Origin: Somniosus microcephalus
Taxonomy: Eukaryota
Direction of reading: 5' to 3'
DNA length: 64,000 nucleotides
NCBI GenBank assembly: GCA_052327205.1
Contig: CM126204.1
Location: forward strand, 352,842,001 to 352,906,000
Part shown: positions 1,271 through 63,721 of the stretch, piece by piece
Numbering within the stretch: position 1 is the stretch's first letter
Layout of the letters: every line of letters starts with the position of its first letter
The notes under the pieces: generated by a model
Seen by the model: the letters and a program-made list of their open reading frames with translations, nothing else
Database searches by the model: none
What the model was told of the DNA's origin: nothing
Made by a program: the position numbers and the translations under genes

Positions 1271-1274
1271 TGAG

Positions 1275-1405: not shown

Positions 1406-1409
1406 AAGG

Positions 1410-29800: not shown

Positions 29801-30274
29801 CTTGACTTGTGAACTGTCAAAGGGTGTAGGCGGATCGCTGCCCTAAAAAAAAACTGTACATCGTTATTGAAACGTTGAGATGTTTTCAGTGCTAGTTAAA
29901 TGCTGAGTTTACTTATATGTTTATGCTACCGAGAACATTATGTACAAGAAAGGTTTAAAAGTAATGCATAACATTTTTCTTTTAAAAGAAAGGGGATGTA
30001 ACAGTTGCATATTGAATTATCATTGGCCCACAGGCATCTGTAAGGAATATCGATTATATTCACATGTGATCACATGCTGAGTTGTCATTGGCCTGCAGGC
30101 ATCTGTAAGGACTACTATTGTTTTGAAGACCCAGGCTAGGGGTCCTAATGCCAGGCTTTTCCCCACGGTGCTGTATGAGTAAGATCAGACCTAATGCTTA
30201 TTAAAAGAGTTAAACTGTAATACTCCGTTGTCCTGCAAGTTATTATTTTTGTACGAAGTGTGCAAAACAAGACA
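26850..30274 (+). mobile_element. 5'-truncated Gypsy/Ty3 LTR retrotransposon (element E: PR-RT-RNase H-IN, PPT, 3' LTR ~29997-30274)
   Basis: ORFs 26828..28183 (LRVCLDPRDLN, RLPFG, VDASKYGLGAVL) and 28259..29812 (HHCC, VDYYS, SDNGPQ, SNGLAE); PPT aaaagaaagggga then tgtaac; no 5' LTR or gag. Confidence 0.88.
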
Positions 30275-35842: not shown

Positions 35843-38800
35843 TGTTGAGTCTGAGTGTCCCAGATATGCTTATTCTAAATCACTGGACACAGACAACAAG
35901 AATAACTTAAACAGGTCTTTACTAATCGAAGGTCACGGCTGAACTGCTTAGCAAATTACTACACAGAGTTTATATACCGGTGTGGTCACCACCGGTACTA
36001 CAATATACAGTAGCCAAGAGAAAGTAGTCCATCTCTTAAGGTAGTCTCTTAAGGTGGTACAGGTTACATACACCATAATTCCTCCCTTTTTAGCTTAACA
36101 GTGTACATCCCAATTTAAACATAACATGGATAACATATATACAACTTCATGCAAAACTGTTCAAAGATTCAGTCTCTGAGGAGGCCTCCTGATCCGAGTT
36201 GGATAACGCCTTTCAGGGGTCTCTGATTCTCATTGCTGGGGTGACTCATCTAGTTGATCTCTTATGGGTTGGACATCATCAGATACATTGGCGTCTGAGG
36301 TAGATGCTTCAGGTTCACTAACTTCTTCCACTGGTGTCTCTGTCGTAGTCATGGGTTCGACCCTTGTTCTCGATTCTATAAGTTGGTCAGCATGACGTCG
36401 TATTACGTTTTCACCAATATCTACCGTGTACATCAGGGGTCCCTGTCTGGCACGAATTGTTCCAGATTGCCATTTCTCATTCTTATAGTCCCGGGCTAAC
36501 ACTGGTTGTCCTATTTCGAAACTCCGAGTGGTCTTGTTATTTATATGCTGGAACTGTTTGTTTTCGACTTCCCTCCGCACATTTGGTTTTAACAAGTCCA
36601 ACCTGGACCGCAACCTCCTGTTATAGAACATCATGGCAGGGCTTTGATTTGTCACTGCATGAGTGGCGTTTCGATATGCCATTAGGAAATTGTCCACCTT
36701 GTGTTGTAGTGGAATCTGGTCTTCGCTCATGGCCTTTATCGCCTTTTTGAACGTTTGTACAAATCTCTCGGCCAACCCATTTGTAGCCGGATGATATGGG
36801 GCAGAGGTATAATGTTTCACCCCATTCTTCTTCATGAATTTCTGGAATTCTTCTGACATGAACTGCGGTCCATTGTATGAACATATTTGTTCTGGCAATC
36901 CATTTCTTGCGAATATCGTTCTTAGAACTGCGATCGTCTTTTCCGAGGTAGTGGTCGCCATCTTAATCACTTCTGGCCATTTAGAATGTGCGTCTACCGC
37001 AATTAAAAACATGGAGTCCATGAATGGACCTGCGAAGTCAATATGTACATGTTGCCATGGGGTTGAAGGCCATTCCCATGGATGCAGCGGTGCAATTGGA
37101 GGTGCATTTTGAACTTTTTGGCACCCTGAGCAGCTTTTAGTCAGATCCTCTATTTGTTGGTCGATACCTGGCCACCACACATAAGCCCTAGCAAGGCTTT
37201 TCATCTTGACTCCCCCCAGATGACCTTCATGCAGTTCCTTTAGAACTCTCTCTCTTAATTTAGGAGGAATAATCACCCTTGTTCCATACATCAATGTTCC
37301 TTGACAGACGGACAGCTGTTCTCGCCTGGCTGAGAATGCCGGTAACAGTGGTTCACCATGAGCTGGCCATCCCTTCACTGTCAATTCGTAGACCCAAGAC
37401 AGTGTCGGGTCGTTCCTGGTTTCTCTCTCAATACTTGCATTGGTGACTGGTAAACATTCGATGATGGTCAAGTGAAATAACTCAACAGAGTCAACTGTCG
37501 GTGCCTCTTCCGCTGTAGGTAGTGGCAGGCGCGACAGCCCATCAGCATTACCATGTTGCTTTGTACCTTTGAATTCGATATGATATTGATGTGCCCCTAG
37601 GAAAAGAGACCATCTCTGGAGCCTCTGCGCTGTCATCACCGAAACACCCTTCTTAGGGTTAAAAATGGAAACCAACGGCTGGTGGTCTGTCAGCAGCGTA
37701 AACTTTTGCCCTTGCAGGTAATGATTAAATTTTTTTACTCCCCACACAAGGCTGAGAGCCTCCCTATCTATCTGAGCATAGTTGCGCTCAGCGGAGGTCA
37801 ATGATCTGGATGCGAATGCGACTGGTCTTTCCAAGCCATTTGGCAACTTATGTGAGAGCACTGCCCCACTACCATATGGAGAAGCATCACAAGCTAAACG
37901 AATAGGCAGCGTTGGGTTAAAGTGAGCCAACACTTCCTTAGAGGTGATCAATGCCTTGCTTTTGTGAAAGGCCCGCTTACAGTCCTCGCTCCACTTCCAT
38001 GGCACTCCCTTCTGCAAAAGAACGTTCAGCGGGTGTAGCACCGTGGATAAATTTGGCAGAAACTTATGGTAATAGTTAATAACCCTAGGAACGACCTCAA
38101 CTGGGATACATTTTCCGGAGCGGGAGCCTTCACAACAGCTTCGATCTTGTCAGGTGACTTGTGAAGCCCCTCCTGGTCAATGACGTGACCACAGTACGAG
38201 ATTTGCTTCTGAAAGAACTCACATTTCTGGCGATTAACTCGAAGTCCATATTCTTTCAATCTGGTGAGCACCTGTTCCAAATTTGCAAGGTGTTCCTCAT
38301 CATCATCTCCTGTAATCAGAATGTCGTCCAGGTAGCATTGTGTGCCTGGAATTCCCTGTAATACCTGCTCCATGGCCCTTTGCCAAATCGCTGGAGCCGA
38401 TGCCACTCCAAAAACTAGTCTATTATACCGATATAAGCCCTTATGCGTGTTGATCGTGAGATACTGGCGTGACGCTTCATCAACTTCCATCTGTAAGTGC
38501 GCCTGCGCCAGGTCTATCTTGGTGAAGTGTTTCCCGCCAGACAACGAAGCAAAGATATCCTCAATCCGTGGAAGCGGATATTGCACCGTGTGAAGCACCG
38601 GATTAACAGTGATCTTGAAATCGCCACAGATGCGAACCTTCCCCGGTTCCCCCGGCTTGTTACTCGATGAACGCTTCATGACGGGAACAATGGGCGTGGC
38701 CCATTCACTCCAGTCCACCTTTGACAGTACTCCGGAACGTTCTAGTCCTTCCAGCTCAGCTTCCACAGCAGGTCGTATCGCATAAGGTACCGGTCTAGCT

Positions 38801-41008
38801 TTGAAAAATTTTGGGTTTGCATGTTCTTCAACCTTGATGTTTGCCGTAATTCCTTTCAGTGTTCCCAGTCCCTGCTGGAACACCTCTTTAGCATCGTCCA
38901 ATATTCTGGACAGTCGTTTAGGTTTGACATCGTCCTTTTTACCGGAATCTACAGTTAGTGCTTTTAAGGAATGCCAGTCCATATTTATTCTCCTGATCCA
39001 TTCCCGTCCCAGTAGTGGTGGACCTCCCTCAGGTAACACATATAAGTCCATTCCTCGGCTTTCTTTACCCTTGTGGACCACCTTTACCTTTATCTTTCCA
39101 ATGGGGTATACTCTTTGCCCCGTGTATGTTTTCAATACAATCTCCGTATCCCTTAGGGGAATGTGTGGAAATAACCTTTTGTAATCTTGCTTATTCATGA
39201 CCGTCAATGCCGATCCAGTGTCCAATTCCATCTTCACTTGGACTCCTGCTATCTGAAGTGTGACCCAGATAGTTTGGTGGTCTGCTGTGTTACCCACATT
39301 ATGTATTCTTAGACAACCCAGTTCCTTACTGCTGGAGTCTGAATCCATCTTCTGTTCATCCGAACTGTTCTCTGTCACCTTGTTGCACTTTTCCTGCAGT
39401 GACTTTTTGTTGCTGGTCTTCTTTCCTGACCGGCATACTTTATCTATGTGACCGAGCTTGCCACATTTTCTGCATTCCTGATTTTTGAACCAGCACTGGT
39501 TCTGATCGTGCGTTGTCCTTCCGCAACGATAACACTTTACTGCACCCAATGCCATTTGATTGGTGCTGAGTTCCGATGACCTTAGCTGCATTTCCGCGGT
39601 GCCTCTTGCCGCGGCCTCGTGCGATGCTGCAATGGTGACAGCTTTATCAAGCGTAAGGTCCTTTTCCTCTAGCAGTCGCTTTTGTGTTCCTTCTTTTAAT
39701 AATCCACACACGAATTTATCTCTCAGAGCATCTGCTAGTCCTGTACCAAACTGACAGTACTTTGATAGCTTGCGCAGTTCAATTAAGAATTCAGCGTTGC
39801 TTTCCTCTTTCCGCTGCGTTCTTCTGTAAAATTTAAATCGTTCCGCTATCAGCAGCGGCGTGGGGTTTAAATCTTCTTGCAGGATATTAACAATATTCGC
39901 GAAAGTCTGATCCGCCGGTTTATCTGGTGTTACAAGGTGCCTCAATAACCCGTACGTCTTTGCACCCATTGAGTTTAATAAGGTTAGTGCTTTCTTATCA
40001 TCTGGTACCTCATTTGCTGTACAATAAACTTCAATGCGTTCTACATACGTGGCCCAATCTTCAACATCGCTATCAAAAGCAGTGATGTTACCGTGTTTAG
40101 GCATCCTTGAGAGTTTCTTTAAATATTTTATTTTTCCAAAATGGCGGCTTCCCGCGCTTGTCTTCTTCCCCCGCCTACTACAATGGCGGCTTCCCGCGCT
40201 TGTCTTCTTCCCCCGCTGGCTACAATGGCGATGACCACGCTGTTGCCGTTCTCGCCTCCCAGCGGTTCTTAATTTCCCCGACGCTGCTTTTGCTCCCCCG
40301 CGGTTCTTGTGGGCATTAACGCTTCCCTCGTTGCTGCGCCTCTCAGCCCCGATTGCAGCCCGGCCCTTTTCACCAGCTGTGGTCGAGTTCTCCGTGGTTC
40401 TCGTGGCATTAACGCTGCCCTTGTTGCTGCGCCTCTCGGCCCCGATTGCAGCCCGGCCCTTTTCACCGGCTGCGGTCGAGTTCTCCGCCCTTTTTCCTCC
40501 GGTTTCCCTCCCCTTCTCCACTGACAACACGGCCGACTTTCTGCCCGTGTCGCTAGATCGGCTTACCCACCACCGTGGTAGAAGGATGATCACTGCCTGT
40601 CGCTGATGGAGGACTTCGTGGTCAGTAATTTCAACCTGGGTTCTCGATGCCTCCCGTGCGATGCAGTGCTCAGCAGGATGATGAGGGCGGATGCCTCTTC
40701 TCGATGCCCGTTCTGAGGACGAAGCTGCCTTGGATGCAAAACTGCCGCAGGGTAAGATCGGACTCGTCGCCACTGTTGAGTCTGAGTGTCCCAGATATGC
40801 TTATTCTAAATCACTGGACACAGACAACAAGAATAACTTAAACAGGTCTTTACTAATCGAAGGTCAGGGCTGAACTGCTTAGCAAATTACTACACAGAGT
40901 TTATATACCGGTGTGGTCACCACCGGTACTACAATATACAGTAGCCAAGAGAAAGTAGTCCATCTCTTAAGGTAGTCTCTTAAGGTGGTACAGGTGACAT
41001 ACACCACA
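35843..41008 (-). mobile_element. Full-length Gypsy/Ty3 LTR retrotransposon (element A)
   Basis: 235-bp LTRs 35843-36077 and 40774-41008 (3 mismatches by eye); TSD gttct; PBS TGGCGACGAG (tRNA-Ser-like); PPT aaaagggaggaat. Confidence 0.95.
36165..40104 (-). pseudogene. gag-pol of element A (Gag, 2 zinc knuckles, PR, RT, RNase H, IN); one frameshift near 38050 and a late stop at 36230
   Basis: MPKHGN..., [59 protein letters not shown]. Confidence 0.92.
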
Positions 41009-41859
41009 GTTCTGGGAGGGAGGGGCAGGGGTGAGGGCAGACGTGCGGGAGATAGAACTGACACGGTCAACCATGGTAGAGGGGAATCCTTGGTTGAGGA
41101 AAAAGGAAGACATGTCGGAAGCACTGGTATGGAAGGTGGCATCATCAGAGCAGATGCGGCGGAGACGGAGAAACTGGGAGAATGGAATAGAGTCCTTACA
41201 GGAGGCGGGGTGGGAGGAAGTGTAGTCCAGGTAGCTGTGGGAGTCAGTGGGCTTGTACTGAATGTTGGTCAATAACCTATCCCCAGAGATGGAGACGGAG
41301 AAGTCGAGGAAGGAAGGGAAGAGCCGGAGATGGACCATGTGAAGATGAGGGAAGGGTGGAAATTGGAAGCAAAGTGAATTAAATTCTCTTAACTTCTCCT
41401 GCCTTCTATCCTATCACAGACCTTCCCTTTTGTTCTTTTATCCCCTCCCCCATTTCCCAGCCCCTACACTTGCTTAAAAATCTGTTCCATTTCCTGCTTT
41501 TTTCCAGTTCTGACAAAAGGTCATCGACCTGAAACGTTAACTCTGTTTCCCTCTTCACAGAGGCTGCCTGACTTGCTGAGTATCTCCAGCATTTTCTGAT
41601 CCTATCTCTGTCCTGGCTCCAACCAAAGCAACTCCCACTCTTTATGAGCAGTTATACTGCCAATGCCCTGTGAAGTTGATGGGAATGCTGGGAATGCTTG
41701 GTCTGCCGTAGCATTGCAATGACATAATAATTTGTCTTAATCGTGCAATTTAGACCTTTGGAGAGTTTGAAATTTATAGACAGGGAAGATAGGGGAAAGC
41801 GTGGACTATTCGCTAAACTTCCAGCTGTTCCAGGGTTTCAATTACATTTACAACTATAG

Positions 41860-42557: not shown

Positions 42558-42812
42558 TAGATGTTTACAATTGCACAACACATTATAGAACACAATCCAG
42601 TATGGACAAATTGCCTAGCAAAACCCCAATTAGTAATGAACCACCAAGTAATCAAGGGGTCCATTTACACTACAATTTTGGGGTTACTTTGCACCAACAC
42701 TAAATTTGCAATCTAAATCTAGAATTAAGCCCAAAGTTGACTCGGAAAAGAAATGGAGTGAATTTCTCTAATAGGGGGTAATTACTGCTTGGATTTGACA
42801 GCGCAGAGAGTG

Positions 42813-43039
42813 TGACATGAATCAGTCATTCATGAAAGAAAAACTTTTGAAATAATACTGAGCGGCCTACGGGTGGCGCTGTCCAGGGAGAGTATAAATA
42901 CTCGGGCACGGGCCCAGCTTGCGCAGGACATTCTTAACAGGAACTAGTGAAGGACACAACTAGACCTTCATGTTGTAAAACAGTTGATTAAAGCTTTGTT
43001 TAACGCTTAGACCAAGTGCCTAGTAGTTTTCTTACGTCA
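42813..43039 (+). mobile_element. Solo LTR (family X, copy 4)
   Basis: TG...CA; flanks gagtg/gagta; reverse complement of 3071-3299. Confidence 0.8.
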
Positions 43040-43059
43040 GAGTATATCTACAAATGAGC

Positions 43060-45490
43060 AGGGAGTGTAAATCCAGGGTAACGAGCGTAACTCCAGTGCA
43101 GGGAATGTAACTCCAGTGCAGGTAGCGTAACTCCAGTGCAGGGAGAGTAACTCCAGTGGAGGGGGAGTAACTCCAGTGCAGGGAGAGTAACTCCAGGGCA
43201 ATGAGCATAACTCCAGTGCAGGGAGTATAAGTCCAGCGCAACAAGCGTAACTCCAGTGCAGGGAGAGTAACTCCAGGGCAACGAGCGTAACTCCAGTGCA
43301 GGGAGTGTAAGTCCAGCGCAAGGAGAGTAACTCCAATGCAGGGAGAGTAACTCCATGGAAATGAGTGTAACTCCAGCACAGGGAGACTAACTAGTGCAGG
43401 GAGAGTAACTCCATGGCATGGATTGTAAGTCCTGCACAGCAAAAGTATCTCCTGTACAGGGAGAGTAACTCCAGCACAGGGAGAGTAACGCCAGTGCAGG
43501 GAGAGTAACTCCAGTGCAGCGAGAGTAACACCAGTGCAGGGAGAGTAACACCAGTGCAGGGAGAGTAACACCAGTGCAGGGAGAGTAACTCCAGCACAGG
43601 GAGAGTAACTCCAGTGCAGGGAGAGTAACTCCAGGTCAGGGAGCGTAACTCCAGTGCAGGGAGAGTAACTCCAGGTCAGGGAGCGTAACTCCAGTGCAGG
43701 GAGAGTAACTCCAGGTCAGGGAGAGTAACTCCAGCACAGAGAGAGTAACTCCAGTGCAGGGAGAATATCTTCAGTGCAGGGAGAGTAACTCCAGTGCAGG
43801 GAGAGTAACTCCAGCGCAGGGAGAGTAACTCCAGCGCAGGGAGAGTAACTCCAATACAGGGAAAGTAACTCCAGTGCAGGGAGAGTAACTCCAGGTCAGG
43901 GAGAGTAACTCCAGCACAGAGAGAGTAACTCCAGTGCAGGGAGAATATCTTCAGTGCAGGGAGAGTAACTCCAGTGCAGGGAGAGTAACTCCAGCGCAGG
44001 GAGAGTAACTCCAGTGCAGGGAGAGTAACTCCAGTACAGGGAAAGTAACCCCAGTGCAGGGAGAGTAACTCCAGTGCAGGGAGAGTAACTCCAGCGCAGG
44101 GAGAGTAACTCCAGTACAGGGAAAGTAACTCCAGTGCAGGGAGAGTAACTCCAGTGCAGGGAGAGTAACTCCAGCGCAGGGAGAGTAACTCAAGTGCAGG
44201 GAGAGTAACTCCAGTGCAGGGAGAGTAACTCCAGTGCAAGGAGAGTAACTCCAGGTCAGGGAGAGTAACTCCAGTGCAGGGAGAGTAACTCCAGGTCAGG
44301 GAGAGTAACTCCAGCACAGAGAGAGTAACTCCAGTGCAGGGAGAATATCTTCAGTGCAGGGAGAGTAACTCCAGCGCAGGGAGAGTAACTCCAGCACGGG
44401 GAGAGTAACACCAGTGCAGGGAGAGTAACACCAGTGCAGGGAGAGTAACTCCAGCGCAGGGAGAGTAACTCCAGTGCAAGGAGAGTAACGCCAGTGCAGG
44501 GAGAGTAACTCCAGTGCAGGGAGAGTAACTCCAATGCAGGGAGAGTAACTCCAGTGCAGGGAGAGTAACTCCAGTGCAGGGAGAGTAACTCCAGCTCAGG
44601 GAGAGTAACTCCAGTGCAGGGAGAGTAACTCCAGTGCAGGGAGAGTAACTCCAGTGCAGGGAGAGTAACTCCAGTGCAGGGAGTAACTCCAGTGCAGGGA
44701 GAGTAACGCCAGTGCAGGGAGAGTAACTCCAGCGCAGGGAGAGTAACTCCAGCGCAGGGAGAGTAACTCCAGTGCAGGGAGAGTAACGCCAGTGCAGGGA
44801 GAGTAACTCCAGTGCAGGGAGAGTAACTCCAGCGCAGGGAGAGTAACACCAGCGCAGGGAGAGTAACTCCAGCGCAGGGAGAGTAACTCCAGTTCAGGGA
44901 AAGTAACTCCAGTGCAGGGAGAGTAACTCCAGCGCAGGGAGAGTAACTCCGGCGCAGGGAGAGTAACTCCAGTGCAGGGAGAGTAACTCCAGCGCAGGGA
45001 GAGTAACTCCAGCACAGGGAGAATAACTCCAGTGCAGGGAGAGTAACTCCAGTGCAGGGAGAGTAACTCCAGTGCAGGGTGAGTAACTCCAGTGCAGGGA
45101 GAGTAACTCCAGCACAGGAAGAGTAACTCCAGCGCAGGGAGAGTAACTCCAGCGCAGGGAGAGTAACACCAGTGCAGGGTGAGTAACTCCAGCGCAGGAA
45201 GAGTAACTCCAGCGCAGGGAGAGTAACTCCAGCGCAGGGAGAGTAACACCAGTGCAGGGTGAGTAACTCCAGTGCAGGGAGAGTAACTCCAGCACAGGAA
45301 GAGTAACTCCAGCGCAGGGAGAGTAACTCCAGCGCAGGGAGAGTAACTCCAGTGCAGGGAGAATAACTCCAGCGCAGGGAGAGTAACTCCAGCACAGGGA
45401 AAGTAACTCCAGTGCAGGGAGAATAACTCCAGTGCAGGGAGAGTAACTCCAGCGCAGGGAGAGTAACTCCAGCACGGGGAGAGTCACTCC
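43060..45490. repeat. Minisatellite, 20-bp unit gggagagtaactccagtgca, ~120 copies
   Basis: Direct reading; variant units (-cgca, -caca, -gtca, gagaatatcttc) recur in blocks. Confidence 0.97.
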
Positions 45491-47314: not shown

Positions 47315-50300
47315 TGTAAAGTCTGTGGGTTATATGGTGAATTAATACACAGACTACAAGAGTAACTTTAACAGGACTTTACTATTCGAAGGTCAGGGCG
47401 AATCTGCCCAATAAATCCTTACACAGCACTTATATACCGGTGTGGTCACCACCGGTATTACAGTATACAGCAGCCAAGATAAAGTAGTGCAACACCTAAA
47501 ATAGTTCTCTTAAAGGTGGATGGTTACATACAATAGTTCTCTTAAAGGTAGAACGGTTACATACACTACAATCCTCCCTTTTTAGCTTACAACATACTTA
47601 TTCCCCATTAAACATAACATCATAACATCTATCCAACTTCATTTAAAAACAGTTCACAGATGTAGTCTCTGCGGAAAACAGTTCACAGATGTAGTCTCTG
47701 CGGAAAACAGTTCACAGATTCAGTCTCTGCGGAAAACAGTTCACAGATTCAGTCTCTGTGGAGGCGCCTCCTGTGCTTCTTGACTCGGTCCGGACAATGC
47801 CTCGGTGGTGTAGCAGTTTCCTGTGGTATAGTCGGTTCACGTTGCTGGAGTGACTCATCCAATAGTCCTTCACTGGACTTAACAGCTTGAACTTCCGTCA
47901 CTTCTGAACCAGCATTGTTGACTTCTAAAAGCTTGAGTACCTTGGGAAGTTTTTCTACTTCCAAACTGATTTGGCTCCGTTCGGAGGGACCACGTGCGTG
48001 ATCTGGTAGAGGTGATAATGGTTCAGATGGGACATCTTCTTCTGTTTCGTCTTTTCCTTTCCTGCTTCTTGGAGACTCTCTGTGCTCCGCTGCCAGCCGC
48101 ATGCACAGTTCCTCCTCCTCTTTCTCCTGTTGCCTTAGCAGTGCCACTATCTCCCGGTGTTTCTTAGACTTTTTGTGATTCTTCAGGGTTTGTGCACTTC
48201 GGAAGATTTCCCCACAAGCTGGGCAGAACAGGTCCTCGTTATATTCGGTGTCGTTCAACAGGACATGGTAATAATCGGTGTCGTCCTGAGCTAGGCCAGC
48301 GAGAGGGTCTTTTATTTCCTCCATGCCCAGCTGGACGTTAGCCAGCTTTTGTTCCAAGTCCCGACATCTCTCCTGAAGAGACTTCTTCATGTGTTCAGCT
48401 TCCTCCAGCTTTTTCTGGGCTTCCTGCAAGTCTTTTATTAATGACCTCATTCGTGATTTCAATGCTTCAACTTCCTTCGGAGATTGATTGATCGTACTAT
48501 TCAATCCCTCTACTGGAGCAGCTGTTTCAGCATTTTGTTGTTCGACATTGACGTGAGTCAGCGTACGTTTGGCATCCAAGGGTTGCTCTGCTGCCATCTT
48601 CTCAGTCTGTGTTGCAACCTCAGCTATTTCAATAACTTTTGAGAGCTCCGAACCCCTTTCCTTTGAAGATTGAAGCTCGTGTTCAAATTGTTCCCATTTC
48701 AGAGTCTTGTCCCTCAGCATATGAAGGAGTTGGCTGACCGTTAACTCTTCTGACCTCATCCATTTCCCAGTAGCTGCAGGGCTGTTTATAACCTTGCCCT
48801 GGGGCTCCTTTGCTGTTTCTACTTCGCCATCATCCGCAGCCTCCACCATTCGAATTTCCACAAATGAATCGTCCGGTGGTGCTGCACCCAACTTCAGTAG
48901 GAGCTCGGAATTCATGGCGACCAACTCAGCCTTTTCTGCCTGCAATCTGCTAACAAGCGCCTTCAGTTGCTGAACATCTTGCTCCACCAGATTAGAGCAC
49001 GCACCTTCAGAAACCGAATCAGCTTTGATTCGTTTGGCCTCCTTGCGCAGACGGTTTGTGTGCTCCTGCTCCCTTTTCTCCCTCAGCTGTTTCTGTTGTC
49101 TTTCCAGATTCTCCCACTCTGTGTCAAAGAACGTTTTCATTGCTTTTATCTCTTGCTCGAGACGGCAACTCAATTGTTCTAATTGCTGTTGTAATTTGAA
49201 ATGGAGTTGAGTTCGAGCCCGGTGTTCCTCAGACTTGTGCATGTCTGTAAACTGGACAGACTCAGAATTCTCTGCCAAACTATGTTGTTGTTGTTCAGTG
49301 GAATTCTGTTCTGAAACTTTGTTCTCCTTTGAAGCATCAGTATTTATGCACTCCTTCGTTTTTCCAACCTTAGTCAGCAAGTCCATTTTAGACTTGTCTT
49401 TCGCACCTGGGCTGGTCTTGTCGTCATCCGTTTCAGAGTCTGAGCTGATTGTCTTCACCGAGTTCTCACTCGTTATTGCTTTTAGGTAGTGCCATTCCAT
49501 ATTTATTTCCCTGATCCACTCCCGTCCCAGAAGTGGTGGACCTCCCTCAGGTAGTACATATAAGTCCATTCCTTGGTGTTCTTTGCCCCTGTCTCTCACC
49601 TTGACTTGTATCTTTCCCATGGGGTATACTTTATGCCCCGTGTATGTCTGCAATACGATCTTGGTATCTCTCAAGGGTATATGTGAGAATAGCCGGTTGT
49701 AATCCCTTCGATTTATGACTGATAGGGCTGATCCTGTGTCCAATTCCATTTTCACTTGGACTCCGGCTACTTTTAGTGTGACCCAGATAGTTTGTAGGTT
49801 AGCTTCCTTACTCACATTGTGAATTCTCAGACTACCCAGTTCCTGGCCGTTCGGGTCTGAATGCGAATTCTGTTCATCTGAACTCTTCTCAGCCACCTTG
49901 TGTACCTTGCTGTCCTTTTCCTGAGGTGACTTTTTTCTGTTGTTGGTCTTCTTTCCTGACCGGCATACTTTAGCTATGTGACCAAGCTTGCCACATTTTC
50001 TACATTCCTGGTTTTTAAACCAGCATTGGTTCTGGTCGTGTGTTGTCTTCCCACAACGATAACATTTTGTTGTACCCGAAGTCATTTGATCCACGCTGAG
50101 TACCGCTGCCTTCAGCTGCATTTCCGCAGTGCCTCTCACGGCTGCTTCGTGTGATGCTGCAATAAGGACAGCCTTGTCAAGTGTAAGATCGTTCTCTTCG
50201 AGCAGTCGCTTTTGTGTTCCTTCCTTCGACAACCCGCACACGAACTTATCTCTCAATGCCTCTGTCAGATTTTCCCCAAACTGGCAGTATTTCGCTAGTC

Positions 50301-51887
50301 TACGCAGTTCGACCAAGTATTCCGCGTTGCTTTCCTCTTTCCGTTGCGTTCTCGCATAAAATTTGAATCATTCCGCCAACATCAGCGGTGTGGGGTTCAA
50401 ATGATCCTTCAGGACAGCAACAATATCAGCGAAAGTCTGATCCGCCGGTTTAGCTGGTGATAGAAGATGCTTCAATAGCCCGTATGTCTTCGCCCCCATT
50501 GCGTTTAATAAGGTGAGAGCTTTATCATCATCTGCTATTTTATTGGCCTCACAATATATCTCGATGCGTTCTACGTACGTGGCCCAATCTTCCACTTCGG
50601 AATCGAAGTTGTTGATGTTACCATGCTTAGGCATCTTCACTATCTTTTTGAGAAACCACAACGAATTTGTTCGTTACTTTTTTTTTCCAAAAATGGCGGT
50701 TTCCCGCGCTTCTGTCTTCTTCCCCCCTACTGGCGGCTTCCCGCATTTCTTCCCCTGGCGGGAGGGGTAAGCTTTCCTTCGGGCGACGACCGCTGGCTTT
50801 CGGAGTTCGCAGCCTGCGCGCCGGCTTCAGTGCGTTCCTTGTTCCCTTTTCTCGGCCGGCAACCGGCGCTGGGGACAACCCGTTGGCGGCGAACAGTTCC
50901 AGCCGCTGGGCGGAATCTCGCTCGGTCTCCCTCGCTCGGTCCCGTTCCCCCTTCACTCGGCTCTGTCTCTCCCTCAGCGGCTTCCAATCGCGCCTCCCAG
51001 CCCTCTCGCAGTCCGGTCCTTTCCTCCCCCGGCTGCGGCTGAGTTCTCCGCGGTTTTATTTATTTTTATATCTTCCCGCGCCTTACAATCCCGGTCGCAG
51101 CGCCTCGTGGCCTCGGTAGCTGCCCGGCCTTTTTCGCCGGTCGCGGTCTAGCTGTCTCACGACGCTGTTGCGTCTCCCAGCCCGCTTGTAGCCCGGTCTC
51201 TCACACCGGCTGCGTTCCCGCTTGTAGCCCGGTCTCTCACACCGGCTGCGTTCCCGCTTGTACCGCGGCTTCCGTGCCCTACGCTGCCCCAGTCTCAGCG
51301 CCTCTGGGCCCGACTTCTGTCCGGCTCCTTTCCCCCGACCGTGGTCGAGTTCACCGCCCTTATCCTCCGTTTCTTTTTATTTTCCCCCTACTCACAGTCA
51401 ACGTGGCCGACTTGCTTCTCTTGGCTGATCGGCTCACTCACCGCCGTGGCAGAAGGGACAATAACAGCCTGTTGCTGATGGAAGGCTTCGTGTCTGAATC
51501 CTTCCTTCTTCCTTGCTCTGCAGACTCGAGTCTTCTCTCAGCAGAACGACGAGGGCGGGTGCCTCTTCTCGACGCTCGTTAACTGCTTCAGGTGTGTCGC
51601 TGCCGCAGGGTAAGATCGAACCCGTCGCCACTGTAAAGTCTGTGGGTTATATGGTGAATTAATACACAGACTACAAGAGTAACTTTAACAGGACTTTACT
51701 ATTCGAAGGTCAGGGCGAATCTGCCCAATAAATCCTTACACAGCACTTATATACCGGTGTGGTCACCACCGGTATTACAGTATACAGCAGCCAAGATAAA
51801 GTAGTGCAACACCTAAAATAGTTCTCTTAAAGGTGGACGGTTACATACAATAGTTCTCTTAAAGGTAGAACGGTTACATACACTACA
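47315..51887 (-). mobile_element. Non-autonomous Gypsy LTR element B carrying host-gene-like cargo
   Basis: 256-bp LTRs 47315-47570 and 51632-51887 (1 mismatch by eye); TSD tgagg; PBS TGGCGACGGG; PPT aaaaagggaggat; no RT/IN motifs. Confidence 0.95.
47749..50634 (-). CDS. Chimeric Gag-protease-cargo polyprotein (STK10/SLK-like coiled coil + optineurin-like segment with LIR + DNAJC21-like zinc finger + integrase C-terminal tail); single CGA>TGA stop at 50368-50370
   Basis: ORFs 50368..50661 and 47749..50316 are in the same frame; Gag/PR homologous to element A; cargo motifs [88 protein letters not shown]. Confidence 0.85.
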
Positions 51888-52940: not shown

Positions 52941-55900
52941 TGTAGTGTGTGTACCCGTCTACCTTTAAGAGAACTATTGTATGTAACCGTTCACCTTTAA
53001 GAGAATTATTTTAGGTGTGGCACTACTTTGTTTGGCTTCTGTATACTGTAATACCGACGGTGACCACACCAGTATATAAGTGTTGTGTCAGGAATTATTG
53101 GGCAGATTCGCCCTGACCTTCGAATAGTAAAGTCCTGTTTTAAGTTACTCTTGGAGTCTGTGTATTAATTAACTAAACAACCCACAGACTTTACAGTGGC
53201 GACGAGTCCGATCGTACCCTGTGGCAACAATACGTCCGAAGCAGTTAACGAGCGTCGAGAAGAGGCAACCGCCCTCGTCGTTCTGCTGGGAAAAAACTCG
53301 AGGCTGCAGAACTAGAAAGGAGGAAGAATTTAGAGACAAAGACTTCCATCAGCAACAGGCACTGACTGTCCCTTCTGCCACGGTGAGGAGTGAGCCGATC
53401 AGCACGAGAAGCAAGGCGGCCACGGTGACTGTGAGTAAGGGAAAGTAAAAAGAATAACCGGAGGATAAGGGCGGTGCACTCGACCACGGTCGAGGGGGAA
53501 AGGAGCCGGACAGAAGTCGGGCCCAGAGGCGCTGAGACTGGGGCAGCGTGGAGCAAGGAAGCCGCGGTACAGACAGGCTGGGGACGCAACGGCGTTGTGA
53601 GACAGCTAGACCGCGACCGGCGAAAAAGGCCGGGCAGCGACCGAAGCCACGAAGCGCTGCGACCGAGAGCGTAGGCGCGGGAAGATATAAAAACTCAGCC
53701 GCAGCCGGGGAGGGAAGCACCGGACTGCGAGAGGGCTGGGAGGCGCGATTGGGAGCCGAGTGAGCGGGAGAGGCAGAGCCGACCAAGGGAGACTGAGCGA
53801 GAGCCAGTCCAGCGGCTGAAACTGTTCGCCGTCAACGGGGTGTACCCAGCGCCGGTAGAGCCGAGCGAGCGGGAGAGAAACAGAGCCCGAGCAAGGGGAA
53901 CTGAGTGAGAGCCAGCCCAGCGGCTGAAACTGTTCGCCGTCAATGGGGTGTACCCAGCGCCGGTTGCCCTGCCGAGAAAAGGGAAAGCACTGAAGCCGAC
54001 GCGCAGGCTGTGAACCTGAAAGCCAGCGGCCGTCGCCCGTGGGGGAAGTGTACCCCTCCCGCCAGGGGAAGGAACGCGGGAAGCCGCCATTAGGCGGAGA
54101 AGAAGACAGAAGCGGGGAACCGCCATTGAAGTGGGCGGGGAGAGAAGATAAGCGCGGGAAACCGCCATTTTCGCGGGAACCGCCATCTTGGGAAAAGAAA
54201 AAAAAATTTTAAAGAAATAATTCGTGGTGTTATCAGGAAGAGAGGAAGATGCCTAAGCGTGGTAACATCAACAATTTTAATTCCGAGGTAGAAGACTGGG
54301 CCACGTATGTGGAACGCATTGAGATCTATTGTGAGGCCAATAAAATAGAAGAAGATGACAAAGCTATAACCTTGCTAAACTCGATGGGCGCGAAGACATG
54401 TGAGCTCTTGAAGCATCTACTAGCACCAGCTAAACCGGCGGATCAGACTTTCGATGATATTGTGACTGTTCTGAAGGATCACTTGAACCCCACACCGTTG
54501 ATGTTGGCGGAACGATTCAAATTCTATGCGAGAACGCAAAGGAACGATGAAAGCAACGCAGAATACTTGGTCGAACTGCGTAGACTAGCGAAACACTGCC
54601 AGTTTGGAGGGAATCTGACAGAGGCATTGCGAGACAAGTTCGTGTGCGGATTGGCAAAGGAAGGAACGCAAAAGCGACTACTCGAAGAGAACGACCTTAC
54701 ACTTGACAGGGCTGTCCTTATTGCAGCATCGCACGAAGCCGCAGCGAAGGGAACTGCGGAAATGCAGCTAAAGACAGCGGCACTCAGTGTGGATCAAATT
54801 ACCTCGACAACAACAAAATGCTATCGTTGTGGGAAGACAACACACGACCAGAACCAATGCTGGTTTAAGAACCAGGAATGTAGGAAATGTGGCAAACTGG
54901 GTCACATAGCTAAGGTATGCCGGTCAGGGAAGAAGACCAACAACCAAAGGACCAACAACCAAAGGAAGCCATCACAGGAAAAGTACAACAAGGTACACAA
55001 GGTGGCTGAGAAGAGTTCAGACGAACAGAATTCGGACTCAGACCCAAACGGCCAGGAGCTGGGTAGTCTGAGAATTCACAATGTGAGTAAGGAAGCTGAC
55101 CTACAAACTATCTGGGTCATGCTAAAAATAGCTGGAGTCCAAGTGAAAATGGAGTTGGACACTGGATCAGCTCTATCAGTCATAAATCGAAGGGATTACC
55201 ACCAGCTATTCTCACATATACCCTTAAGGGATACCAAGTTCGTATTGCAGACATACACGGGGCATAAAGTATGCCCCATGGGAAAGATAAGAGTCAAGGT
55301 GAGAGATAGGGGTAAAGAACACCCAAGAATGAACTTATACGTACTACCTGAGGGAGGACCACCACTTCTAGGATGGGAGTGGATCAAGAAAATAGACATG
55401 GAATGGCCCTATCTAAAAGCCATAACGAGTGAGGACTCGGTGCAGACAATCAGCTCAGATTCTGAATCGGATGACGATAAGACCAACCCAAATGTGAAAG
55501 ACAAGGCTAAAATGGACTTGCCGACTAAGGTTGGAAAAACGAAGGCATGCCGAAAGGCTTATGCTTCAGAGAAGAACAAAGTTTCAGAACAGAGCTCCAC
55601 CGAACAACGACAACATAGTTTGACAGAGAATTCTGAGTCTGTTCAGTTTAAGGACATATCCATGACGGAAGAACACCGAGCTCAGACTCAACTTTATTTC
55701 AAATCACGACAACAATTAGAACAATTGAGTTACCGTCTCGTACAAGAGATGAAAACAATGAAAAAGTTCTATGACACCGAATGGGAGAATCTGGAAAGAC
55801 AACAGAAGCAGCTAGCTCAAGCAGAGAGCGACCATAGAGCCATCGTGACCAATCACCGATCACATCTCCCTTATGATGTTCAGGAGTTAGAATATTTACA

Positions 55901-57818
55901 GAAAGAAGCAAATGAAGAGGAATCTTCAGGAAGCCAGGATTTTATTCCAGTTCTTCTCTACGACTCCTTACAAGCAGAGTTTGAGAAGTTGAAGGAACAG
56001 GCCCAGGCTACAATCCTGGAGGGGGTTAACTCAGCAACCTCCGAAAAGCTAGTTTCAGTGGAAGCATATGAGCAACTAAAGGTTGAACATGAACAAGAAG
56101 TCCAAAGGCTGCAGGAAATTCTTAATGAGCTCAAGGCCAAGACAGACTCATCGGTAGAAGTTCCATCCATAGATGAGAAATTAGAGGTGAAAGACATGGC
56201 AGAACATGAAAGTCAAGATGTCCAAGAACTCATAAAAATATTGAAGGAAACCCAAGACAAATATGAGGCGGCAATGACCGAGGTTCAACAACTTGAAGAA
56301 CAGATTCAACTGGGAATTCTTTCAGTGAAAGAAAAGGCAACTGTAAGAAACACAGAGACTGTAAGAATGGCCCCTGAACATGAGCTAGAGAGCATCAAGG
56401 CGCAACTTCTCCGAGCGCTTAAAGCCAAAGTACAAGAGGAAAAAAAGGTGAAAGCATTGGAGGAAAAGGTGGATGAAATAGAGAAGACTCTGATCCACAG
56501 GGTCCCCGTGGAAGAGTTAACGGTCAGCCAACTCCTTCATATGCTGAGAGACAAGACTCTGCAAGGGGAACCATTTGAACACGAGCTTCAATCTTCAAAG
56601 GGAAGGGGTTCGGAGCTCTCAAAAGTTTGGGGAATAGTTGAGGTTGCAACACAGATTTTACGGGGCTGCCGAAAGTACGCTGAATCACGTCAATGGGAAC
56701 TACAGAATGTTGAAACAGCTGCTCCAATAGAAGGATTGAATAGCCCGATCAATCAATCCCCGATGGAAGGGGAAGTATTGGAATCACAAATGAGGTCATT
56801 AGTGAAGGACTGGCAGGAAACCCAGGAAGAGCGGGATGAATATGAACGCATGAAGAAGTCTCTTCAGGAAAGATGTCTAGGGAGGGAACAACAGTCAGCT
56901 AACGTCCAGTTGGGTAAGGAAGAAGTAGCAGGCCCTCTCGCTAGACTAGCTCAAGACGACACCGAATATTACCATGACCTGTTGAGTGACACGGAATATT
57001 ACGAGGACTTGGTCTGCCCAGCTTGTGATGAAAACTCCCAAAGTGCAGAAATCAGGATGAAGCACTTAAAGTCTAAGGAACATAGGGAGATGGTGGCGCT
57101 ACAGCTGGCAGCTGATAAGGGAGCCCCGAGAGTCTCCAAGAAGCAGAAAAGAAAAAGACGAAGCAGAAGACGATAACCATCTAAATCATTATCACTTCTA
57201 TCAGATCATGCACGTGGGCCCTATGAAGGAGGCCAAATCAGTTGGAAAGTAGGAAAAATTACCAAGGCAGTCCAGCTGTTTGTAAAAGTCAGCACTGCTG
57301 GTTCAGCAGGACGGAAGTTCAAGCTGTTAAGCCAAGGGAAAGACTATTGGATGAGTCACGCTAGAAATGTGAACCGGCTACACCACAGAGATGTTGTTCG
57401 GACCGAGTTAAGACCAGAGACTGAATCTGTGAACTGTTCCCGCAGAGACTGAATCTGTGAACTGTTTCCCGCAGAGACTATATCTGTGAATTGTTTTACA
57501 TGAAGTTGATTATATGTTATGTTTAATGGGGAATAAGTATGTTGTAAGCTAAAAAGGGAGGATTGTAGTGTATGTACCCGTCTACCTTTAAGAGAACTAT
57601 TGTATGTAACCGTTCACCTTTAAGAGAATTATTTTAGGTGTGGCACTACTTTGTTTGGCTTCTGTATACTGTAATACCGACAGTGACCACACCAGTATAT
57701 AAGTGTTGTGTCAGGAATTATTGGGCAGATTCGCCCTGACCTTCGAATAGTAAAGTCCTGTTTTAAGTTACTCTTGGAGTCTGTGTATTAATTAACTAAA
57801 CAACCCACAGACTTTACA
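52941..57818 (+). mobile_element. Non-autonomous Gypsy LTR element C carrying host-gene-like cargo
   Basis: 255-bp LTRs 52941-53195 and 57564-57818 (2 mismatches by eye); TSD ctgtg/ctatg; PBS TGGCGACGAG at 53197; PPT aaaaagggaggat; no RT/IN motifs. Confidence 0.95.
54249..57176 (+). CDS. Intact 975-aa chimeric Gag-protease-cargo polyprotein (STK10/SLK-like + ANKRD24/RAI14-like + optineurin-like + DNAJC21-like segments)
   Basis: Uninterrupted ORF; Gag, 2 CCHC knuckles, LDTGS protease, then [73 protein letters not shown]-x12-H-x5-H. Confidence 0.88.
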   Translation: MPKRGNINNFNSEVEDWATYVERIEIYCEANKIEEDDKAITLLNSMGAKTCELLKHLLAPAKPADQTFDDIVTVLKDHLNPTPLMLAERFKFYARTQRNDESNAEYLVELRRLAKHCQFGGNLTEALRDKFVCGLAKEGTQKRLLEENDLTLDRAVLIAASHEAAAKGTAEMQLKTAALSVDQITSTTTKCYRCGKTTHDQNQCWFKNQECRKCGKLGHIAKVCRSGKKTNNQRTNNQRKPSQEKYNKVHKVAEKSSDEQNSDSDPNGQELGSLRIHNVSKEADLQTIWVMLKIAGVQVKMELDTGSALSVINRRDYHQLFSHIPLRDTKFVLQTYTGHKVCPMGKIRVKVRDRGKEHPRMNLYVLPEGGPPLLGWEWIKKIDMEWPYLKAITSEDSVQTISSDSESDDDKTNPNVKDKAKMDLPTKVGKTKACRKAYASEKNKVSEQSSTEQRQHSLTENSESVQFKDISMTEEHRAQTQLYFKSRQQLEQLSYRLVQEMKTMKKFYDTEWENLERQQKQLAQAESDHRAIVTNHRSHLPYDVQELEYLQKEANEEESSGSQDFIPVLLYDSLQAEFEKLKEQAQATILEGVNSATSEKLVSVEAYEQLKVEHEQEVQRLQEILNELKAKTDSSVEVPSIDEKLEVKDMAEHESQDVQELIKILKETQDKYEAAMTEVQQLEEQIQLGILSVKEKATVRNTETVRMAPEHELESIKAQLLRALKAKVQEEKKVKALEEKVDEIEKTLIHRVPVEELTVSQLLHMLRDKTLQGEPFEHELQSSKGRGSELSKVWGIVEVATQILRGCRKYAESRQWELQNVETAAPIEGLNSPINQSPMEGEVLESQMRSLVKDWQETQEERDEYERMKKSLQERCLGREQQSANVQLGKEEVAGPLARLAQDDTEYYHDLLSDTEYYEDLVCPACDENSQSAEIRMKHLKSKEHREMVALQLAADKGAPRVSKKQKRKRRSRRR

Positions 57819-59329: not shown

Positions 59330-60838
59330 TATTCATTGATGGGATGTGGGCGTCGCTGGCTAGGCCTGCATTTAATGCCCATCCCTAATTGCCCTTGAGA
59401 AGATGGTGGTGAGCCGCCTTCTTGAACCGCTGCAGTCCATATAGTGCAGGTACACCCACAATGCTGTTAGGAAGGGAGTTCCAGGATTTTGGCCCAGCGA
59501 CAGTGAAGGAACGGCGATACAGGTCCAAGTCAGGATGGTGTGTGGCTTGGAGGGGGACTTGTAGGTGGTGATGTTCCCATGCGTCTGCTGCCCTTGTCCT
59601 TCTAAGTGGTAGAGGTCGCGGGTTTGGAAGGTGCTGTTGAAGGAGCTTTGGCGAGTTGCTGCAGTGCATCTTGTAGATGGTACACACTGCAGCCACAGTG
59701 CGCCGATGGTGGAGGGAGTGAATGTTGAAGGTGGTGGATGGAGTGCCAATCAAGCGGGCTGCTTTATCCTGAATGGTGTCGAGCTTCTTGCGTGTTGTTG
59801 GAGCTGCACTCATCCAGGCAAGTGGAGAGTATTCCATCACACTCCTGACTTGTGCCTTGTAGATGGTGGAAAGGCTTTGGGGAGTCAGGAGGTGAGACAC
59901 TCACCGCAGAATTCCCAGCCTCTGGCCTGCTCTTGTAGCTACAGTATTTATATGGCTGGTCCAGTTCAGTTTCTGGTCAATGGTAACCCCCAGGATGTTG
60001 ATAGTGGGGGATTCAGCAATGGTAATGCCATTGAATGTCAAGGGGAGATGGTTAGAGTCTCGCTTGTTGGAGATGGTCATTGCCTGGCACTTGTGTGGTG
60101 CGAATGTTACTTGCCACTTGCCAGCCCAAGTCTGAATGTTGTCCAGGCCTTGCTGCATATGGACACGGACTGCGTCAGTATCTGATGAGTCTCGAATGGT
60201 GCTGAACAGTGTGCAATCATCAGCGAACATCCCCACTTCTGACCTTATGATGGAGGGAAGGTCATTGATGAAACAGCTGAAGATGGTTGGGCCTAGGACA
60301 CTGCCCTGAGGAACTCCTGCAGTGATGTCATGTGATTGAGATGAATGACCTCCAACAACCACAGCCAACTTCCTTTGTGCTAGGTATGATTCCAACCAAT
60401 GGAGAGTTTTCCCCTTGATTCCCATTGACTTCAGTTTTGCTAGGGCTCCTTGATGCCACACTCGATCAAATGCTGCCTTGATGTCAAGGGCAGTCACTCT
60501 CACCTCACCTCTTGAGTTCAGCTCTTTTGTCCATGTTTGGACCAAGGCTGTAATGAGGTCAGGAGCTGAGTGGCCCTGGCGGAACCCAAACTGGGCGTCA
60601 GTTAGCAGGCTATTGCTGAGTAAGTGCCGCTTGATAGCACTGTCGACGACACCTTCCATCACTTTGCTGATGATTGAGAGTAGACTGATGGGACAGTAAT
60701 TGGCCGGGTCGGATTTGTCCTGCTTTTTGTAGACAGGACATACTTGGGCAATTTTCCACATTGCCGGGTAGATGCCAGTGTTGTAGCTGTACCGGAACAG
60801 CTTGGCTAGGGGCGCAGCTAGTTCTGGAGCACAAGTCT
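59330..60838 (-). mobile_element. L2/CR1-superfamily LINE RT fragment
   Basis: ORFs 59901..60761 (ALDIKAAFDRVWH, VPQGSVLGP, MFADD) and 59385..59900. Confidence 0.9.
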
Positions 60839-61639: not shown

Positions 61640-63721
61640 AGTAGTGTATGTACCTTTAAGACAGAACTACTTTTACAGCTCCTGTATACTGTAGTACCGG
61701 CAGTGACCACACCTGTATATAAGCCTTGCGCATGCCTCTGTACCCCCAGTCTTGAGACTACCCTCCACCAGTAAATACCTGTTGATTGTTAAGTTACAGC
61801 ATCCGTGTGGTTATTGAAAAACATCATACTCTCAGAATCACGGATCTAACAGTGGCGATGAGTGTCAATTCGAATCTACCTGCAACTCTGCATTTCCCTT
61901 CGAGGAGTCACTCCGGGAGGGCGGTGGAAGCAAGTCGAGGCCAGAAACACGTGCGTCGACCACGAGCAACCGCCCAGTCGTCCGGCAGAGAGTGAACATC
62001 GCAGGGGAGGCTGTGGAGAGCCGGGCTTGGTTCCCCAGCCACGACGATCAGCAAGAGACTGACGACAGGTACAGCGCAGATCCTTCCCGGACAGCGGTGG
62101 CTGGAGCCGACCGACGGCAGAGAGAAAGCCGAGCAGCGTCGACGGGGTAAGACAGAGGGTGAAGCGCACAGGGCGCAGCCGGGGGTTGAAAACCGAGCAG
62201 CGTCGAGAGAAAAAAAAAATGGAGAGAGAGAGGGTAAAGCAACAGCCGGGTTCAGGACCGAGCGGCGGGAACGGGAAAGGCACACAAAAAAAAGAACGCG
62301 CAGAGCACATCCAGGGCTCAAGGGCTGAACGGTGTCCGCGGGGAGAAGAAGGGAGAGCGCGGGAGATGCCATTGAGCTGCGGAGAAGAAGGAAGAGCGCG
62401 GGAGATGCCATTTTTAGAAGCCGCAGCGGAGAAGAAGGGCGAGCGCGGGAAGGAAGGGGAAGCGCGGGAGATGCCATTTTTGACAGTTAAATCACACCCA
62501 GGGATGCCGAAGAGTGGCAGTATCTCTACGTTCGACAATGAAGTCGAAGATTGGGCAACATATGTGGAACGTATTGAGGTGTACTGCAGGGCGAATGAAG
62601 TGCCAGATGCTAGGAAAGCACTGGTTTTGTTAAATTCCATGGGTGCAAAAACTTTTGGGTTACTGCGGAACCTAATAACCCCAGAGAAGCCAGTGAACAA
62701 GAATTTCGAAAGCATAGTAGAAATCCTACAGGACCACTTAAACGCCATACCGCTGCTGATAGCAGAACGATTTAAGTTCCATAAAAGGAACCAACACAAA
62801 GACGAAAGCAATGCTGAGTACCTAACGGAACTACGCAAGCTATCGAAACACTGCCAGTTTGGAGCGGGACTAGCAGATACGTTAAGGGGCAAGTTTGTGT
62901 ATGGGCTGCAAAGTGAAGGAACCCAGAAACGGCTTCTATCAGAAAGGGATCTTACGCTGGACAAGGCTTTCAGTATGGCAGTATCACACGAAGCAGCCGC
63001 AAGGGGCGCTGCAGAGATACAACGGAGACCGCAAGAATATGGCACCAATTAAATGTCCTATGGAACAGGGAAGTGCTATCGCTGCGACAGAACAACACAT
63101 GACCAGAAGGATTGTTGGTTCAAGGACCAAGTGTGCAGACTGTGTGGAAAAGCAGGACACATAGCAAGAGTCTGCAGGTCTGGGAAGAAAACCAACAGTA
63201 AGAAATCTCCACAGGAGAAGTACAAAAAGGTACACAAGGTGATGGACAGTAGTTCAGATGAACAGAAAAGTGACGCAGACTCCGGAAACAAGGTTGTCTG
63301 AAACTACATAAGGTAACCAAAATGGAGGATCACCAGACTATCTGGGTTACACTCAAGATAGACGGAGTCCAAGTGAAAATGGAATTGGACACAGGATCAG
63401 CCCTAACAGTCATAAACCAAAGGGACTACAAGCGGCTATTTTCACATATACCCTTGAAAGCTACAGAGATTGAATATTAGGGGTACTACTAATCTAAAAG
63501 GGGAGGAATTGTAGTGTATGTACCTTTAAGACAGAACTACTTTTACAGCTCCTGTATACTGTAGTACCGGCAGTGACCACACCTGTATATAAGCCTTGCG
63601 CATGCCTCTGTACCCCCAGTCTTGAGACTACCCTCCACCAGTAAATACCTGTTGATTGTTAAGTTACAGCATCCGTGTGGTTATTGAAAAACATCATACT
63701 CTCAGAATCACGGATCTAACA
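61640..63721 (+). mobile_element. Gag-only non-autonomous Gypsy LTR element D
   Basis: 212-bp LTRs 61640-61851 and 63510-63721 (differ only at the first base by eye); TSD ccaag; PBS TGGCGATGAG; PPT aaaaggggaggaat. Confidence 0.93.
62504..63480 (+). pseudogene. gag plus truncated protease of element D
   Basis: MPKSGSISTFD..., stop at 63050, two CCHC knuckles, frameshift near 63300, ELDTGS, then truncation just before the PPT. Confidence 0.85.

Follow-up and report, generated by a model that had tools for sequence, protein, structure and literature searches.

Stops and frameshifts are purged from inherited variants of a shark Ty3/Gypsy LTR family with neutrally evolving host-derived cargo

Background

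Acutely transforming retroviruses are replication-defective and helper-dependent, and carry transduced host coding sequence joined in frame to gag. The subject of this report is a family of long terminal repeat (LTR) elements in the shark Somniosus microcephalus, found in a 64,000-nucleotide stretch of its 6.4-Gb genome (positions 352,842,001-352,906,000; the window), which contains four LTR elements, A, B, C and D. Elements B and C carry gag, an aspartyl protease (PR) and pieces of host genes, here called cargo. Unlike gag-onc retroviruses, the shark elements lack env, do not conserve their cargo as protein and have captured no catalytic host domain.

The closest described process is LTR-mediated retroposition, including the maize element Bs1, in which partial host mRNAs replace internal open reading frames (ORFs) between LTRs. 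Further likenesses in the main text of that report (PMC5131818) are microsimilarity at switch points, several parental genes, transcription and secondary retroposition; the word 'circ' is absent from that main text. Whereas the same source gives 1-5 copies of Bs1 per species, the shark family has at least 3,673 exact genomic matches to a 33-base marker just inside the cargo (control 0), at least five donors and a nested series of captures. It also differs in that its gag-PR has been kept under selection, and in that the open frame is selected and the cargo residues are not.

Circular RNAs (circRNAs) can also give rise to pseudogenes. The portion of PMC4897178 drawn on here describes the criterion of a non-colinear exon-exon junction, an association with LTRs, and many copies of one circle (33-42 copies of a mouse RFWD2 circle), all of which resemble the shark case. 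That portion leaves the mechanism open, whereas the shark circle lies inside an intact LTR element at microhomology junctions, apparently makes one complete turn, continues the gag reading frame and comes from a cartilaginous fish. The shark family is a variant of LTR-mediated retroposition, and by the criterion of PMC4897178 the ANKRD24 piece of element C is a retrocopy derived from a circRNA.

Two viral systems bear on the open frame. The defective-interfering RNAs of mouse hepatitis virus are likewise helper-dependent, with a mosaic ORF that needs translation and a product that is possibly irrelevant, as far as the text consulted describes them (PMC4395149); their replication system is unrelated, and the shark evidence is evolutionary, from integrated germline copies. 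In Rous sarcoma virus, a stop after gag likewise leaves a long 3' untranslated region (UTR) on the genomic RNA. In the part of PMC2925335 used here, such a UTR triggers nonsense-mediated decay of retroviral RNA and the virus relies on an RNA stability element after the stop; the shark family appears to keep the frame open instead.

The literature searched, with incomplete coverage and supplements excluded, held no account of the family or of full-circle capture in an LTR element, and none was found on circSTK10; for circRNA capture by LTR elements at least most of the searches gave nothing. For gene capture by shark Gypsy LTR elements nothing apparently relevant appeared, as judged by titles and the starts of abstracts.

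Elements B and C

Elements were delimited by self-BLAST of the window, the output of a repeat finder being dominated by a 20-bp satellite. The features of C and B are as follows.

52941..57818, plus strand: element C
52941..53195, plus strand: 5' LTR of C, 255 bp; a primer-binding-site-like sequence begins at 53196
54249..57176, plus strand: reading frame of C, 975 codons, fully open
54249..55115, plus strand: gag of C (capsid, CCHC knuckle, linker), by Pfam; net dN/dS 0.15-0.18
55116..55427, plus strand: aspartyl protease of C, by Pfam; net dN/dS 0.41
55428..55813, plus strand: STK10-derived cargo, with the linker (residues ~400-482 of P0031), an in-frame deletion and the start of the PKK domain (residues ~621-668)
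55811..55883, plus strand: ANKRD24/ankycorbin forward splice, from one exon's last bases to the whole next exon (host L122:9348-9413)
55883..55884, plus strand: ANKRD24 back-splice junction, from the downstream exon donor (GTAAGG follows in the host) to the acceptor of the upstream large exon (host L091:862)
55884..56517, plus strand: ANKRD24/ankycorbin large-exon piece, 95% identical to the host exon
56511..56923, plus strand: optineurin piece, spliced exons, with a compensated frameshift at ~56652-56686
56925..57176, plus strand: DNAJC21 cargo (C2H2 zinc finger, basic tail) up to the lineage stop, which lies 387 nucleotides (nt) short of the 3' LTR
57177..57420, plus strand: remnant STK10 (residues ~322-390) and integrase tail, untranslated; inherited frameshifts occur here in related lineages
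57544..57818, plus strand: polypurine tract and 3' LTR of C (LTR 57564-57818)
47315..51887, minus strand: element B, with LTRs at 51632-51887 and 47315-47570 and a perfect 5-bp target-site duplication
50634-47749, minus strand: reading frame of B, 961 codons, with gag-PR, STK10, optineurin (49027-48314), DNAJC21, STK10 and an integrase tail

B and C belong to a non-autonomous Ty3/Gypsy LTR family. Paired LTRs, a primer-binding site, a polypurine tract and a short target-site duplication (in C 5 bp with one mismatch) are all present; gag and protease are retained, reverse transcriptase (RT) and integrase are absent from both, and an autonomous relative with the order PR-RT-integrase exists. The clade is tentatively taken to be Mag-like.

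The original prediction, made from the letters of the window, held that C is a fully open ORF of 975 codons, that each element's own LTRs are nearly identical and that B and C have clearly diverged. All three points stand: the LTRs differ at 1 of 256 sites in B and 2 of 255 in C, and identity between B and C is 84% in one shared block and 79% in the other. The claim of one stop in the 961 codons of B was right as to number, but the stop lies at codon 89, in gag and not in the cargo, and is private to B. The cargo was treated as common to both elements and is only partly so, since codons ~522-754 of C are ANKRD24 and codons ~517-628 of B are STK10/optineurin, from separate captures.

Selection on the open frame

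Variants passed on by transposition have been cleared of stops and frameshifts. For stops, inherited variants were defined as those in at least 5 copies and private variants as singletons, after removal of segmental or tandem duplicates (L135, L050 and L136, of which only the first two belonged to the B and C sets). Within the cargo, 17 of 514 singletons create a stop, as against 0 of 218 inherited variants (p = 0.005). The variants' own mutation spectrum predicts ~12 inherited stops, or ~8 when scaled by the singleton shortfall. Variants of two to four copies include 3 stops in 167, all at CpG-type codons, and the recurrent early stops are mostly in copies other than mutual nearest relatives.

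Insertions and deletions (indels), tallied by hand, behave similarly. Upstream of the end of DNAJC21, none of 9 inherited indels shifts the frame, compared to 28 of 41 private ones (p = 2e-4); for the cargo alone the figures are 0/7 and 14/22 (p = 0.006). One inherited event in this tally draws on copy L073 and on RNA reads. The lineage stop, 387 nt before the LTR, is common to C and most B-like lineages, and past it 5 of 6 inherited indels are frameshifts (4 of 5 without the indel at the stop itself). Two further changes lie outside the tally: a pair of deletions in C (-20 and -1 nt) scrambles 11 codons, restores the frame and is fixed, and a -7 nt change in B bypasses a stop and extends the ORF. 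Four cargo joints of known net length in RNA reads are all multiples of three (-66, -99, -51 and +90). The capture junctions are in frame in 9 of 10 cases, the exception being the most distal.

Among the 30 closest copies of each type, the frame reads through in 15 for B and 19 for C, in keeping with young descendants of an open source. A single open young copy is likewise expected from neutral decay; the signal exceeds chance only at the level of the family. The prediction that translation of the cargo is selected is supported, as is its branch that invoked the mRNA and packaging in cis.

Selection on the encoded residues

The same prediction had offered, as its other branch, selection on a coiled-coil-rich fusion protein, and this was not borne out: the cargo residues are neutral, while gag-PR is under purifying selection. 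The ratio of nonsynonymous to synonymous divergence (dN/dS) was computed from 30 B-type against 30 C-type copies (299 shared cargo codons), with a transition/transversion ratio of 4.5 estimated from the copies. Net dN/dS is 0.21 (0.13-0.30) for gag-PR and 0.91 (0.61-1.37) for the shared cargo, with values of 1.07, 0.35, 0.95 and 1.39 for the individual shared pieces. B against O-type copies gives 0.89 for cargo and 0.32 for gag-PR, and the neutral baseline, dN/dS of cargo within types, is 0.83-0.87. A cargo value of 0.58, obtained with transitions uncorrected, was discarded as bias, since the baseline likewise fell to 0.57-0.60.

A second test compared nonsynonymous and synonymous counts (N/S) in 50 B-like and 56 C copies, with inherited variants taken as those in at least 4 copies and private ones as singletons; the two sets overlap in ancestry, so that pooled counts are not fully independent. 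N/S in the cargo is 164/68 for inherited and 337/145 for private variants (p = 0.86), and in gag-PR 65/76 and 301/131 (p = 7e-7). The LDTGS motif of the protease is retained in 53/56 C copies and 48/50 B-like copies. Comparison with host exons was not used as a main test because the results are mixed and confounded by the host branch; for optineurin it gives 1.07 (B), 1.22 (C) and 0.31 and 0.67 (O type). In these tests the captured residues gave no sign of the purifying selection expected of a functional gag-host fusion, with a weak exception in the ANKRD24 piece (see below). The prediction's own counter-evidence was a cargo dN/dS near 1 together with frequent inherited frameshifts; the former was found and the latter was not. 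The evolutionary signature is that of an open frame which is required while the sequence it encodes is not.

The earlier statement that most pieces are coiled coils needs qualifying: of the five cargo pieces of C, one is a low-complexity kinase linker (that of STK10) and another a C2H2 zinc finger, while Ig domains make up cargo in a sister lineage. The statement that every piece is in frame fails for C, in which ~11 optineurin codons are misframed between the -20 and -1 nt deletions (in 55 of 56 C copies) and the last STK10 piece lies beyond the stop, and for B, in which the end of the DNAJC21 piece is read in a shifted frame. All pieces are in sense orientation, as stated. However, this would follow from template switching onto co-packaged RNA and so is no evidence of selection.

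Types, relatives and capture history

The types were counted in 90 of the first 100 listed places on C1, picked by position and not by similarity: 38 are C-type, 33 B-like, 11 S2 or titin-type and 8 S-type. A protein search added an O type (15 loci). The lineages differ by ~15% in their cargo, and LTR pairs differ by a median of 0.8% (both LTRs were found in 54 of 60 full-length loci). The autonomous relative, which continues into RT, is represented by a pattern with 4,783 matches, and its gag-PR shares 96-99% identity with that of the S type at five of the six loci inspected. A gag-PR tree rooted on element A, read without regard to node support, forms a ladder of S, then S2/O/titin-type, then B-like, then C, in agreement with the order of captures, with one old copy (L124) outside the ladder. 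That copy (L124:6329-8547), ~70% identical and with STK10, optineurin and DNAJC21 pieces, is a possible recombinant with another helper.

The best donor matches of the cargo are shark proteins. For the zinc finger, a word-based homolog search gave no match among 183 candidates, and a full HMMER search led to DNAJC21. In the S type, gag-PR is followed by the first RT residues, STK10 residues 389-705, STK10 residues 291-389 and an integrase tail, in one frame of 848 codons. S2 lost 139 codons in frame. In the O type the region of the STK10 joint was replaced by optineurin, with 9-nt overlaps at both ends, and in B-like lineages 93 nt behind the protease were deleted and the DNAJC21 zinc finger was added. 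Three copies (L070, L083 and L185) carry titin-type I-set Ig repeats over ~320 codons, with the frame kept at either end. Microhomologies of 7-9 nt are found at the four junctions with both sides known, the STK10 side being taken from element copies.

C gained ANKRD24/ankycorbin sequence, in which a forward splice leads into a whole 66-nt exon whose donor abuts, to the base, the acceptor of the large exon upstream. This joint coincides exactly with the host donor and acceptor and is a non-colinear exon-exon junction in the sense of PMC4897178, and the ANKRD24 cargo of C is derived from a circular RNA. One C-type copy (L122:3712-6650) lies antisense in the ANKRD24 intron that precedes the back-spliced exon, that is, in its own donor gene, and two more family-related elements (L123, L124) are found within 30 kb of it.

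The founding STK10 cargo was probably also derived from a circular RNA, in a full single turn. It runs over residues 291-705 with no part repeated or missing, and its start and end coincide at one STK10 site, which has a short motif in common with both element junctions. The internal joint falls where shark isoforms diverge (P0055/P0056 versus P0031/P0046/P0048), i.e. at an exon end; the permutation and the 3' exon end are backed by these isoforms, and the splice acceptor on the other side is putative. One turn round a back-spliced circle, with two template switches, would explain the permuted order. Alternatively, a linear mRNA might have been captured and rearranged by tandem duplication and deletion, or by scrambled template jumps. 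Internal duplications and deletions by template jumping are indeed common in the family. However, the single start/end site with exact once-only coverage, the position of the internal joint at an exon end and the exact fit of the ANKRD24 joint to host splice sites make a linear origin quite improbable.

The optineurin piece matches six host exons without introns, and the edges of the optineurin stretch hint at a six-exon circle. The O-type stretch starts 9 nt inside an exon start (L118:8557) and ends ~4 nt before an exon end (L101 ~1615). The host optineurin exon (L117 ~4862) has one base more than B and C, which shifts the frame and is either an assembly error or a real allele. B retains an optineurin segment lost from C (window 49027-48780, minus strand) with the motif DDSFVEIRM, which we take to be the LC3-interacting region.

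As a tentative generalization, perhaps somewhat short of an even prospect, Gypsy particles of the shark germline may preferentially co-package circRNAs, with capture by a circling RT and with all five donors having been circles. If so, germline circRNAs would be preserved in the family as in a fossil record, in thousands of copies and filtered for an open frame, and the family would supply the missing mechanism for circRNA retroposition.

The family is transcribed. At 92% likeness, 16,425 of 16.7 million and 11,826 of 14.4 million records match C and cover all 30 bins, counts that include reads from sister lineages and host genes; the two runs are from one study and bear the species label of one of the DNA read sets, which may differ from the species of this genome. 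In run X8 the first mates are mostly minus strand, which is sense RNA in the usual stranded protocol, and run X9 is mixed. Since element transcripts carry the same back-splice junction, ordinary RNA reads cannot distinguish them from the parent circRNA. DNA read sets with at least half of the family words bear three organism labels, from two studies. The marks of an LTR-mediated retrocopy are present: partial intron-less host sequence, microsimilarity, transcription (sense-biased in one of two runs) and secondary retroposition.

Proposed mechanism and alternatives

Gag and protease are still made in full when a stop falls in the cargo, and the cost of such a stop would therefore be borne by the RNA or by the far C-terminus. 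The reading that we favor, with real reservations, is that translation of the cargo to near the 3' LTR is needed in cis, by the RNA and not for a coiled-coil protein. In this model the family makes its own Gag and protease, and would borrow RT and integrase from the co-resident autonomous family. RT would switch templates at the 7-9 nt microhomologies onto co-packaged host RNAs. The founding event would have replaced pol with one full turn of the STK10 circle, and later switches would have added optineurin, DNAJC21, the titin-type repeats and the ANKRD24 circRNA. Propagation, judging from the statistics above, would occur only where ribosomes that start at gag can come within ~400 nt of the 3' LTR. 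An earlier stop would create a 3' UTR of 1-2 kb and expose the single RNA that is both mRNA and genome to nonsense-mediated decay, or else uncouple it from translation-linked packaging. The amino acid sequence of the cargo would be irrelevant filler. Lineages with cargo rival their putative helper in number, and the length of the elements is not fixed, as the shorter S2 elements and the 2-kb element D show. Ty1 RNA stability may depend on some translation, according to the part of PMC3945221 consulted.

Several observations weigh against this model. The 17 singleton stops are themselves below the 27 predicted by their spectrum, and one early gag stop is common to the close relatives L138 and L183. 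Microhomologies among these A-rich sequences coding for E, K and Q would be in frame in ~45-65% of cases by composition alone, and the 9/10 in-frame junctions are thus only modest, weak evidence. The decay or packaging step is putative, and Ty1 proteins, in the same account (PMC3945221), show no cis-preference, with defective Ty1 elements moving efficiently. Among the residues, the 47-codon PKK piece has a dN/dS of 0.35 (0.12-0.99), a low value not repeated in the N/S test. The ANKRD24 piece has an inherited N/S of 20/15 against 75/18 for private variants (p = 0.012, one of nine cargo segment tests) and a dN/dS of 0.35-0.70 against the host exon (five copies, confounded by the host branch). 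Finally, all lineages end in a K/R-rich run (e.g. window 57130-57176) drawn from two unrelated sources, which leads to the first alternative.

The Gag-PR polyprotein might need a basic C-terminal tail, as a nuclear-import or RNA-binding run, with the cargo an indifferent spacer. This predicts the same pattern of stops and indels. The run is integrase-derived in S, S2, O and B and DNAJC21-derived in C and most B-like copies, and the single tolerated inherited truncation stops directly after it. However, the tail residues are not conserved (dN/dS ~2 over 31 codons, with a wide interval), frameshifted E/D-rich purine codons would yield K/R runs by composition, and a putative protease site after PR would probably cut the tail from Gag. 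We consider a need for the tail unlikely, though worth keeping in view.

Still less probable is that the cargo, or its ANKRD24 coiled coil, acts as a protein, in capsid incorporation or host interference. One might cite the lowered N/S of the ANKRD24 piece (relative value 0.32) and its divergence from the host, the fact that C-type copies are the commonest (38 of 90, sampled regardless of similarity) and the transcription of the element. But the ANKRD24 signal is not significant after nine tests and its singleton ratio is out of the ordinary on the high side, neutral evolution holds for every other piece, pieces have been exchanged, lost or translated in the wrong frame, and cargo without coiled coils exists (zinc finger, Ig domains).

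Neutral decay of a young family, with in-frame captures and deletions arising by default from microhomology and codon periodicity, would suit the small LTR-pair differences, the in-frame bias of the microhomologies and the view of Tan et al. (PMC5131818, in the text used) that young retrocopies are in frame through youth, but it is largely refuted already, and very improbable, given the absence of inherited stops despite ~15% cargo divergence between lineages, the small inherited frameshifts that are frequent just past the stop and missing upstream of it, and the fixation of compensated frameshifts.

Implications

A concrete and countable mechanism for circRNA retroposition is provided by capture at microhomologies within an LTR element, in one case apparently of a circle's full turn. 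The family is also a natural experiment with thousands of replicates, in which selection on translation can be separated from selection on protein; a long chimeric ORF that stays open in a transposon is not necessarily a new gene. RNA data alone could now test how far nonsense-mediated decay affects the fitness of LTR elements. In these sharks, STK10, OPTN, ANKRD24 and DNAJC21 may be misannotated or their expression misjudged because thousands of fragments of host genes are expressed.

Other features of the window

The remaining two LTR elements are as follows.

35843..41013, minus strand: element A, a broken relative of the autonomous type (gag-PR-RT, with integrase after RT)
61641..63721, plus strand: element D

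Element A represents the kind of element that would supply RT and integrase in trans. Element D is 2.1 kb long, with identical 211-bp LTRs and only gag-PR-like sequence, and is a short element without cargo that derives from a related family. Another LTR-type pol, unrelated to the first, lies at 25628-29812 (ORFs 26837-28183 and 28292-29812), preceded by a 252-residue ORF at 25628-26386. The 20-bp tandem satellite (~120 units) occupies 42800-45400, and copy L114 is inserted into an array of similar period. Fragments of LINE-type reverse transcriptase/endonuclease are found at 459-6233, 9806-10747, 19214-19789 and 59336-60761; those at 9806-10747 and 59336-60292 are 88% identical.

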